A stretch of 39,903 nt of DNA, from assembly GCA_027491735.1 (NCBI GenBank), contig JAOZGP010000025.1, positions 1 to 39,903 of the forward strand. Direction: 5' to 3'. The notes under the pieces are model-generated. The model saw nothing but the letters and a program-made list of their open reading frames with translations. It did no database searches and was not told where the DNA came from. The translations under genes and the position numbers were made by a program. Origin of the DNA: Thermoproteota archaeon (GTDB lineage Archaea > Korarchaeota > Korarchaeia > Korarchaeales > Korarchaeaceae). Position 1 is the stretch's first letter; the number at the start of each line of letters is the position of its first letter. Shown one piece after another: positions 20,090 through 21,559 of the stretch.

Positions 20090-21559
20090 ATGAGCGAGGA
20101 GCAGAAAAGCCCTATAGCAAGATTCGTCGAATGGATTGACTCCAGATTCGGTTTTTCCGATACCATATTGAGACCTGGACCGAAATACACATTCACACCT
20201 ACTTATTGGCTGGGAGGTCTTGCCTTCTTAGTATTTATGCTCCAAGGAGTGACTGGAGCAATAATTCTCCTGTTCTACATCCCGAGCACCGACGCTGCCT
20301 ATGAGCTCACGTCCAAGATGATCTCGTCAGTTCCCTTCGGAGCACTCCTCCAGACGGTTCATCTTTACGGCGGATACGCGATGATAATCCTGGCGCTGAT
20401 TCACTTCCTTCGTTGTTACTTCGAGGGAGTTTACAAGAAGCCTAGGGAGCTGATGTGGATGGTGGGAATGCTGATGGGCCTCTGCACCCTCTTCATGGGG
20501 TTTACGGGTTACATACTTCCATGGTCCGTGATATCTGGGTGCGCTGCGCACATCTCCCTGGGGATACTCGACTATCTCCCGCCTCAGATAGGGGGGCCTC
20601 TTAAAACATTCATAGTTGGTATAGGCACAGACGAAGAGATTCTCAGGAGGTTCTGTGCTTATCACGTCGTCATACTCCCAGCAGCGGTATTTCTCCTGTT
20701 TTTGATAAAGCTTCACATGTTTGAGGTCCACGGGCCTGCCGAGCCTGTCACTCCTAAACATCACCTTCCTGATGATGCATTCGAGAGGAGGCCTTGGTTC
20801 CCTGACGTGCTTGTGTACCTCCTCATGCAGGGGTTTGTCTTCATAGCAGTTCTTCTGCTGGTTTCAGCCCTGTTTCCACTGGTGCTTCCACCTAAATTCT
20901 CGATGGAAGCAGCTGCTTCAGTTCATCCGGAGCCTGAGTGGTACTTCATGTGGATGTACACTCTTCTCAGGATAAACATCTTCAGCGGCACTTATGGGAC
21001 CCTGGCGGTGATTTGTACAGTTGGGCTGATAGGCCTGATAATATTCTTCCTGCCGTTCGTGGACAGGTCAGAAGCCAGACATCCTCTCGAAAGACCAACT
21101 GCAACGACGCTTGGTCTGATAGGCATAGCTGAGTTCATAGTACTGATAGTCTGGGGATACCTAACCCCTGGCGAGAACCTGCCCACCGAACAGGCGGTCC
21201 TTGTGCTAGGTCTTCCAGCGCTGATAATAGCCCTGATCTGCAAATACTACTTTAACAGCATACTTGTCGAGAGAGGCATAAGGACTCCCAAGAAATTCGC
21301 GTTTGAGTTCCTGAGCGCTGTAGCTAGAAGGAGGTACCTGAGTGTAGTGGCCTTCAGTCTCCTTGTCAGCATGACCTCCTGTACAGCTGCTGGAGCTGTG
21401 AGCGATGCTGCTTGCGGAAATATGCTCAGCGCAGCGATGGGAACAGTGTTCACTGGCCTGTTGTTCTTTTTGGCCTTTGCTCTGATGTACCTCACAGACA
21501 GGACAGCCAATGTGCCGATGAAGCGTAAATTTGGTCCGTTGGAGATGGGAGGGGAGTGA
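20090..21559 (+). CDS. Cytochrome b of a Rieske/cytb complex (unsplit, with extra C-terminal TM helices)
   Basis: WLGG..F, Q.VTG, H-x13-H in helix B, YKKPRE..W..G, FTGYILPW, PEWY and LPFVDRS. ATG 20090 follows GGTGA. Confidence 0.93.
   Translation: MSEEQKSPIARFVEWIDSRFGFSDTILRPGPKYTFTPTYWLGGLAFLVFMLQGVTGAIILLFYIPSTDAAYELTSKMISSVPFGALLQTVHLYGGYAMIILALIHFLRCYFEGVYKKPRELMWMVGMLMGLCTLFMGFTGYILPWSVISGCAAHISLGILDYLPPQIGGPLKTFIVGIGTDEEILRRFCAYHVVILPAAVFLLFLIKLHMFEVHGPAEPVTPKHHLPDDAFERRPWFPDVLVYLLMQGFVFIAVLLLVSALFPLVLPPKFSMEAAASVHPEPEWYFMWMYTLLRINIFSGTYGTLAVICTVGLIGLIIFFLPFVDRSEARHPLERPTATTLGLIGIAEFIVLIVWGYLTPGENLPTEQAVLVLGLPALIIALICKYYFNSILVERGIRTPKKFAFEFLSAVARRRYLSVVAFSLLVSMTSCTAAGAVSDAACGNMLSAAMGTVFTGLLFFLAFALMYLTDRTANVPMKRKFGPLEMGGE

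Follow-up and report, generated by a model that had tools for sequence, protein, structure and literature searches.

Cytochrome b and its fourth axial ligand position

The window analysed here, the whole 39,903-nucleotide stretch of contig JAOZGP010000025.1 from a Thermoproteota archaeon (assembly GCA_027491735.1, Korarchaeaceae in GTDB), carries a dsr operon in which genes for a Rieske iron-sulfur protein and a cytochrome b lie between dsrC and dsrM (Table 1). The cytochrome b is encoded by a single open reading frame (ORF), and its product matches PF13631 (121.8 bits), PF00033 (96.8 bits) and PF00032 (43.2 bits), in each case above the family cut-off; it is also the single PF00033 match across the 1.36-Mb genome. 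An AlphaFold2 model, built from a homologue alignment, reached a mean predicted local distance difference test score (pLDDT) of 86.7 and a predicted TM-score (pTM) of 0.79, and its best Foldseek matches were bc1 cytochromes b (probability 1.00, target TM-score 0.66-0.79). Residues 400-492 (window 21280-21559) form a C-terminal extension past the bc1-like core, in which a low-confidence linker (400-415) leads into two more predicted helices (419-444 and 448-476).

The original prediction, made from the DNA alone, had described a cytochrome b with an intact helix B (H-x13-H) and an intact PEWY motif, in which the position 15 residues past the first His of helix D is occupied by Lys and the next His stands at +17. 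Codon reading bears this description out in every element. Helix B carries His94 and His108 at the stated spacing, helix D carries His195 and Lys210 separated by 14 residues (VVILPAAVFLLFLI), and Lys210 is followed by Leu, His212 and then MFEVHG. Three of the four axial histidines of a cytochrome b are thus present (His94, His108 and His195) and the fourth is Lys210; we still class the protein among the cytochromes b, in a variant form. The same Lys recurs in the three further genomes of the genus and in a clade of homologues, which rules out a sequencing slip or a chance substitution.

Lys210 lies on the column of the fourth axial ligand. In a phmmer search against solved structures, residues 142-216 matched Chlamydomonas cytochrome b6 (1q90_B) with helix D ungapped, pairing Lys210 with the second helix-D His of b6, where the spacing is H-x14-H. 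The nearest His-type archaeal relatives (P0061-65, P0422, P0425-429) place His on the same column, likewise without a gap, and retain the E-x-H-G tail that follows it. In the AlphaFold2 model helix D is continuous over residues 184-217, a block with pLDDT values of 93-97. A two-residue insertion in helix D, making His212 the true fourth ligand, would undo this correspondence, and one pairwise phmmer alignment, with the Pseudomonas aeruginosa cytochrome b 8smr, does open a two-residue gap that puts His212 on the ligand. The +17 residue in the 59 Lys-type rows of our homologue alignment is, however, Tyr in 36, His in 14, Met in 2, Trp in 2 and another residue in 5; since His stands there in only 14 of the 59 rows, His212 is not the general ligand of the family. 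No gap is needed against b6 or against the nearest His-type relatives, and the modelled helix is predicted to run without a break. On the column counts and the ungapped alignments we rejected the insertion, which we regard as scarcely credible.

Table 1. Features of the cytochrome b gene and the surrounding dsr operon in window coordinates (G001-G003, other genomes of the genus; G138, a genome from another GTDB phylum).
Feature	Position	Strand	Basis or remark
Cytochrome b, 492 aa, Lys-type, unsplit (N- and C-terminal domains fused)	20081..21559	+	ORF, Pfam, AlphaFold2, Foldseek
His94, helix B, first axial ligand, haem bL side	CAT 20360..20362	+	Codon reading
His108, helix B, partner ligand of haem bH	CAC 20402..20404	+	Codon reading
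His195, helix D, third axial ligand, RFxxxH motif	CAC 20663..20665	+	Codon; invariant column
Lys210, helix D, aligned with the fourth axial His (haem bH), 15 residues past His195	AAG 20708..20710	+	
His212 (+17), not conserved	CAC 20714..20716	+	Column composition
PEWY Qo motif, residues 285-288	20933..20944	+	Codon reading
CobB-family a,c-diamide synthase, DsrN-like by position	16235..17596	+	TIGR00379 447.6 bits; syntenic in G003 and G138
TrmB/HTH_20 DNA-binding and TusA-like sulfurtransferase fusion, 204 aa	18335..18949	-	Divergent from dsrC
DsrC, C-terminal CKVAGLPKPTGCV with two Cys	19065..19385	+	PF04358 127.7 bits; TIGR03342 124.4 bits (cut-off 53.5)
Rieske iron-sulfur protein, twin-arginine leader (GRRTFLK), CQHLGC and CPCHAGYY	19446..20084	+	PF00355 31.7 bits
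ORF of 89 aa, hydrophobic by reading, directly 3' of cytochrome b	21556..21825	+	No Pfam family
DsrM-like NarI-family dihaem membrane protein	21831..22691	+	PF02665 54 bits
DsrK, HdrD-like catalytic subunit	22707..24176	+	NF045796 590.9 bits (cut-off 400)
CGGC-domain protein	24228..24614	+	Pfam; syntenic in G001-G003
Small 4Fe-4S ferredoxin	24670..24885	+	Pfam; syntenic in G001-G003
DsrA	25347..26567	+	TIGR02064 546.9 bits (cut-off 392.85)
DsrB	26579..27676	+	TIGR02066 493.9 bits (cut-off 341.5)

Distribution, phylogeny and haem pocket of the Lys type

The distribution of the Lys type was read from a 199-row MAFFT alignment (the query and 198 homologues), in which the ligand column holds Lys in 59 rows, the query included, and His in 131. 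All 42 close homologues (E < 1e-66) carry Lys, as do 29 of 48 further homologues from a search seeded with a Lys-type protein labelled 'Thermoprotei', 14 of the 34 full-length cytochrome b rows from one set of fetched loci, and 17 fetched loci overall. All four genomes of the window's genus are of the Lys type, the proteins of the other three being 91, 51 and 51% identical to the query. Ten Lys-type loci from metagenome-assembled genomes are labelled Nitrososphaerota/'Thaumarchaeota' (eight), 'Thermoplasmata' (one) and 'archaeon' (one), and the source labels of Lys-type sequence clusters include 'Nitrososphaerota', 'Thermoprotei', 'Thermoproteota' archaeon and 'Candidatus Geocrenenecus arthurdayi'. 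A sample of 151 Thermoproteota genomes yielded Lys in 3 of 30 loci, and only two of the 151 genomes (or two of the 20 with any cytochrome b match) are of the Lys type, so that clade-wide presence does not mean that the variant is common among archaea. Within the clade the Lys is invariant down to approximately 35% identity while the columns around it are free to vary, as at position 208, which is Ala in 21, Gly in 15, Leu in 9 and Val in 9 of the 59 Lys rows.

Phylogenetic trees were inferred with quick IQ-TREE runs, for which the only support values are those of the Shimodaira-Hasegawa-like approximate likelihood ratio test (SH-aLRT). In a 69-row tree, 31 Lys rows form a clade (support 81), four more fall in a polytomy with an eight-row His-type clade, all of these rows lie within a starred 43-row group, and the Lys/His label requires two changes, against a mean of about 23 when labels are shuffled. 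A 42-row tree rooted on six His-type rows places all 36 ingroup rows, each with Lys, on one side of a branch (SH-aLRT 83). The trees are compatible with a single switch between His and Lys, without proving one. Judged from these alignments, the Lys is a selected trait, fixed in a single archaeal clade of cytochromes b that have a Rieske partner, and not a private change of the window's genome.

The window's own family does not share the trait. Cytochromes b from other genera of the same GTDB family (L087-L103) are of the His type, are 30-37% identical to the query, have a helix-D spacing one residue shorter and Qo motifs of the form GQPEWY or GVPEWY, and fall in a separate starred clade. The cytochrome b of the genus is closer to Nitrososphaerota-type proteins (40-47% identity) than to those of its family, which suggests a different paralogue or a transfer, and the Lys-type gene of the genus looks like a replacement or a horizontal acquisition. 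Two further observations concern the Lys type at large. Genome G052 (~0.9 Mb) encodes two Lys-type cytochromes b (C3:10926-14994 and C15:24808-26259), and rows P0066, P0058, P0071 and P0130 make up an aberrant Lys-type subclade that lacks the E-x-H-G tail.

The pocket of haem bH is preserved in nearly all members of the clade. His94 is His in all 57 filled Lys-type rows (two are gapped) and in 131 of 131 His-type rows, and His108, the expected partner ligand, is retained in 57 of the 58 filled Lys-type rows, the exception being Asn in P0066 and one further row being gapped. Arg111, three residues past His108, is likewise kept in 57 of 58 rows; we take it to be the counterpart of the Arg that binds a propionate of haem bH in solved complexes. 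The glycines of helices A and C, spaced 14 apart, are conserved in the Lys rows (Gly45 and Gly59 in 57/57, Gly129 in 58/59, Gly143 in 59/59), and the residue in second place in the Qo motif, the signature of the quinol-oxidizing site, is Asp in 35 rows and Glu in 21. Row P0066, which sits on a long branch with two aberrant rows, departs from this picture: it has lost His108 and reads PYLQWY at the Qo motif, the pattern expected of true haem loss and unlike that of the other members of the clade, which makes it a candidate for a cytochrome b that has actually lost haem bH.

The dsr operon and the electron acceptors of the genome

The operon surrounding the cytochrome b reads DsrC, Rieske protein, cytochrome b, 89-aa ORF, DsrM, DsrK, CGGC-domain protein, ferredoxin, DsrA and DsrB; a DsrN-like CobB homologue lies upstream, and a KaiC-like gene and the TrmB-TusA fusion are encoded on the opposite strand. 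Curated models recognize DsrK, the DsrC family, DsrA and DsrB, and DsrM is the best NCBIfam match of the DsrM-like protein at 164 bits, below the cut-off of 300. The DsrM-like ORF opens at 21750, with a probable start at 21831, and a 286-aa database protein is identical to the product of 21831-22691; the nearest named relative of this DsrM (64% identity) is labelled 'Candidatus Methanodesulfokora washburnensis', in keeping with korarchaeal membership of the genus. The CobB homologue also scores 432.9 bits on the model for the Ni-sirohydrochlorin diamide synthase CfbB, under its cut-off of 560. The TrmB-TusA fusion is conserved in G001 and G003 and is a possible sulfur-sensing regulator of the operon.

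The Rieske gene overlaps the start of the cytochrome b gene by four bases, and a Rieske gene precedes every Lys-type cytochrome b examined, the pairing being present in 14 of the 14 other loci compared. The Rieske protein scores 97.7 bits on the model for the arsenite oxidase small subunit (TIGR02694), just over the cut-off of 95.65. Its box II (CPCHAGYY) presumably lacks the potential-raising Ser of high-potential Rieske proteins, as would fit a low-potential quinone chain. ORFs of a length similar to that of the 89-aa ORF follow the Lys-type cytochrome b directly at L001:8470-8754, L002:8448-8720 and L003:8484-8765; with the window counted, they stand in dsr-linked and dsr-free operons alike, and six sequences of this kind share seven invariant columns (Q18, F37, A38, L41, Y53, Y55 and W66). 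The ORF probably encodes a small subunit of the complex that has so far gone undescribed.

The gene order from DsrC to DsrB is conserved in the genus genomes G001, G002 and G003, whose proteins are 51-54% (cytochrome b), 72-77% (DsrK) and 74% (DsrA) identical to those of the window. In G138, from another GTDB phylum, the core DsrC-Rieske-cytochrome b-DsrM-DsrK is conserved, with identities of 80% for DsrC, 42% for the Rieske protein, 40% for cytochrome b, 50% for DsrM and 70% for DsrK. Across the dsr-linked loci (L106, L107, L108 and L141), cytochrome b (40-54%) and the Rieske protein (42-63%) are much less similar to the window's proteins than are DsrK, DsrC and DsrA (70-85%). The genus rows and those of the G138 type are not sisters in the 42-row tree, in which the intervening nodes lack resolution. 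The placement of the Rieske/cytochrome b pair inside the dsr operon is real, conserved and independent of the Lys, and its recurrence in two lineages far apart from each other suggests some functional link with DsrMK. We found no published description of such a pair between dsrC and dsrM in the parts of the literature available to our search.

The original prediction proposed to ask whether the Lys follows dsr-linked copies of cytochrome b, and it does not. Ten Lys-type loci contain the Rieske and cytochrome b genes only, with no dsr gene within ~7 kb; Pfam was run on 61 neighbouring ORFs from six of these ten loci. Haem-copper oxidase subunit I (COX1) was present in all ten Lys-type genomes outside the genus, and in G052 it lies ~1.6 kb from one of the two Lys-type cytochromes b. 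A search for DsrK at E values up to 1e-20 found none in nine of these ten genomes; the tenth is G138, which has both the dsr core and COX1. COX1 was found in none of the four genus genomes, one of which is 98% complete. In both the 69-row and the 42-row tree, the copies linked to dsr fall inside the Lys clade. These loci and gene counts led us to reject the notion that the Lys tracks dsr. By its distribution, the Lys is a trait without a specific tie to dsr, older and wider than the dsr linkage, and most of its carriers are oxidase-bearing organisms whose oxygen-respiring chains look ordinary. A search for AmoA (PF12942), as a mark of ammonia oxidizers, had no match in 10 genomes and none in the controls, and was hence uninformative.

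In the window's own genome, which is 88% complete, we found no haem-copper oxidase, cytochrome bd, plastocyanin/azurin-type protein (PF00127) or molybdopterin oxidoreductase, nor did a search there find mcrA (PF02249). A scan of its 4505 frames of at least 80 aa for CxxCH returned ten frames with one motif and none with more, so that no multihaem cytochrome c is evident. The genome would thus have a Rieske centre without an evident acceptor next to its single cytochrome b. One speculative possibility, for the dsr-embedded copies of the genus and of G138, is that quinol oxidation at the Qo site is split, the low-potential electron passing through the b haems to DsrMK/DsrC and the Rieske centre reducing an acceptor on the outer face.

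Elsewhere in the window, a porphobilinogen deaminase gene adjoins a radical SAM/SPASM maturase-like gene (1499-3533), and a FAD-linked oxidase, a LUD-domain/4Fe-4S protein and a CCG-domain protein make up a lactate-utilization-like cluster (6297-12081).

Haem bH ligation and comparison with known systems

That the pocket is preserved, with an invariant Lys across from an invariant His, speaks for a haem bH that remains bound and for a specific role of the Lys there. By position, Lys210 replaces the fourth axial His, the helix-D ligand of the high-potential haem (bH or bn), and we propose that haem bH would be held by His108 of helix B on one side and by the amine of Lys210 on the other. Such a His/Lys haem would be low spin, its midpoint potential would be raised somewhat, and the quinone-reducing (Qi) side would work. 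We consider it reasonably probable, on sequence and by analogy, that haem bH is retained with His/Lys ligation across the Lys-type clade. The analogy is an engineered enzyme. According to the accessible text of Pintscher et al. (2016, J Biol Chem, PMC4807273), the H212N variant of Rhodobacter capsulatus bc1 is a haem-bH knock-out, and H212K arose from it as a spontaneous photosynthesis-competent revertant. Its haem bH is low spin (gz 3.22/3.15, compared with 3.44), the midpoint potential at pH 7 rises from +80 to +130 mV, approximately 80% of steady-state turnover is retained with a working Q cycle, and the Qi-site electron resides on the haem more than it does on the semiquinone (PMC4807273). 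Because the H212K enzyme works with Lys at the same position, ligation by His108 and Lys210 is chemically and functionally credible, and a bond between Lys and iron with a corresponding redox effect is, by this analogy, most likely.

The same pocket can be read differently. Haem bH might be kept while Lys210 is not the sixth ligand, the iron being five-coordinate with His108 as its one axial ligand, or else taking up water or a different side chain as the sixth, and the Lys being kept for electrostatics or hydrogen bonding at the Qi side. The clade also fixes Met213 (52/59), Glu215 (55/59) and His217 (53/59) near the N-side end of helix D, as though the pocket had been remodelled as a whole, and a ligand and its neighbour look the same by sequence alone. 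However, the E-x-H-G tail is common to the nearest His-type relatives and hence does not co-vary with the Lys, Lys210 falls precisely where the normal ligand would stand, on a helix without a break, and in R. capsulatus, where Asn at this position abolishes haem bH, Lys restores a low-spin six-coordinate haem (PMC4807273). We think this account unlikely. Loss of haem bH, leaving a mono-haem cytochrome b without a Qi-side electron path, appears improbable to us. It is what Kao and Hunte (2014, Genome Biol Evol, PMC4122944), in the accessible text, suggest for six sequences from Pyrobaculum in which the fourth His is missing, and P0066 shows that one Lys-type row has lost His108 as well. Against it, His108, Arg111 and the four haem-packing glycines are retained in at least 57 of 58 rows, a dead position would be expected to drift where this Lys stays fixed among variable neighbours, and in ten carriers a haem-copper oxidase accompanies a Rieske/cytochrome b operon that is otherwise ordinary. 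The original prediction had listed haem bH as absent, His/Lys-ligated or repositioned; the preserved pocket and H212K favour His/Lys ligation among these, and the column counts exclude the +17 His as a general ligand.

The original prediction had further supposed that an altered Qi half diverts electrons from haem bL to DsrM. In that account the Lys is an adaptation to the dsr complex that weakens or removes the bH/Qi branch and so sends the low-potential electron of bL to DsrM, and it gains some appeal from the position of the Rieske/cytochrome b pair between dsrC and dsrMK in the four genus genomes and in G138, and from the 88%-complete genome, where searches for an oxidase, cytochrome bd, a cupredoxin and a molybdopterin enzyme came back empty. 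Yet the Lys predates and outnumbers the dsr linkage, with nine genomes that have COX1 and no detected DsrK, the dsr-linked copies are nested in the Lys clade, and neither a contact nor an electron path from bL to DsrM is visible in the sequence. With the Lys common in dsr-free cytochromes b, the diversion is unsupported, and we hold adaptation to dsr to be very improbable. Co-folding of cytochrome b residues 1-400 with DsrM and four haems (score 0.00, mark 0.32, controls not run) carries no weight either way.

Several points weigh against His/Lys ligation of haem bH as a clade-wide trait. The supports of the Lys clade (81-83) are moderate and not starred, four Lys rows stay mixed with a His-type clade in the 69-row tree, and the Lys type is rare in the broad sample (two of 151 Thermoproteota genomes). 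Ligation is read from sequence and from one bacterial mutant, and the conserved Lys could instead serve charge, propionate contact or quinone binding. For Pyrobaculum, the accessible text of Kao and Hunte (PMC4122944) takes a missing fourth His to mean haem loss. The fuller combination, in which the clade provides the first natural His/Lys haem b in a transmembrane bundle and the dsr-embedded Rieske/cytochrome b is dedicated to sulfite reduction in oxidase-free organisms, seems to us quite unlikely to hold in all its parts.

With the menaquinol:DsrC-trisulfide reductase DsrMK(JOP), the window operon has DsrK, a DsrM-like protein, DsrC and DsrAB in common, but it contains no DsrJOP genes. A Rieske/cytochrome b pair in the dsr operon of apparently oxidase-free archaea raises the question of which acceptor the Rieske centre serves and of a partnership with DsrMK. 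The cytochrome b shares with the b6 and bc1 cytochromes b (1q90_B, 8smr, 1pp9) the fold, the two-His helix B, the RFxxxH and PEWY motifs and the adjacent Rieske gene, and with b6 the helix-D spacing; unlike them it has Lys for the fourth His and extra C-terminal helices (419-444 and 448-476). It does not qualify as a cytochrome b6 of the haem ci type, since b6 is split into b6 and subunit IV whereas the window protein is a single ORF, and since in the alignment Trp43 stands at the b6 Cys that binds haem ci, which we take to be Cys35. Nor does it belong with SoxC: the Sulfolobus SoxC-type model NF041076 is its best NCBIfam match at 213.5 bits, far under the 740-bit cut-off. The SoxC-type rows form a sister group in the tree, and PPWF-type His rows share the E-x-H/N-G tail; in contrast to the window protein, SoxC-like rows keep the fourth His and an H-x13 spacing.

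An archaeal parallel is Pyrobaculum, whose Rieske-associated cytochrome b also consistently lacks the second His of haem bH, as reported in the accessible text of Kao and Hunte (2014, PMC4122944), the main text of which does not name the replacing residue and limits the loss to Pyrobaculum. The four axial histidines of cytochrome b have been treated as invariant, and that survey, according to the same text, used them as a filter, removing sequences without all four before analysis (PMC4122944). Because sequences lacking any His were filtered out, the wider Lys clade could not have appeared there. No Pyrobaculum names occurred among the matches of our search seeded with the 'Thermoprotei' Lys-type protein and the accompanying cluster look-up. 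We found no report of a natural Lys at the fourth-ligand position in open-licence papers or preprints, although one in a subscription journal is possible, and the accessible parts of three reviews (PMC5600118, PMC3509893, PMC7908018) contain none.

Judged from the alignments, Lys210 is a natural, clade-wide departure from the rule of four invariant histidines, and one with a laboratory precedent. In the accessible text of their paper, Pintscher et al. (2016, PMC4807273) write that Lys or Met as a natural haem ligand inside an integral membrane protein had not been reported, and predict that such cases exist and 'still await identification'. If His/Lys ligation of haem bH holds, the archaeal clade would offer a native system for the spectroscopy and structure of His/amine ligation of a membrane haem, and would correct the assumption that a missing His means a missing haem in the annotation of archaeal respiratory chains. 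R. capsulatus H212K and Lys210 belong to the same family and place the same residue at the same ligand position, the second His of helix D. H212K arose in the laboratory, as a revertant of a bacterial bc1 of the ubiquinone type, whereas Lys210 is natural, fixed in an archaeal clade and set in a helix with H-x14 spacing; the Lys clade would thus be the native counterpart of the engineered enzyme.

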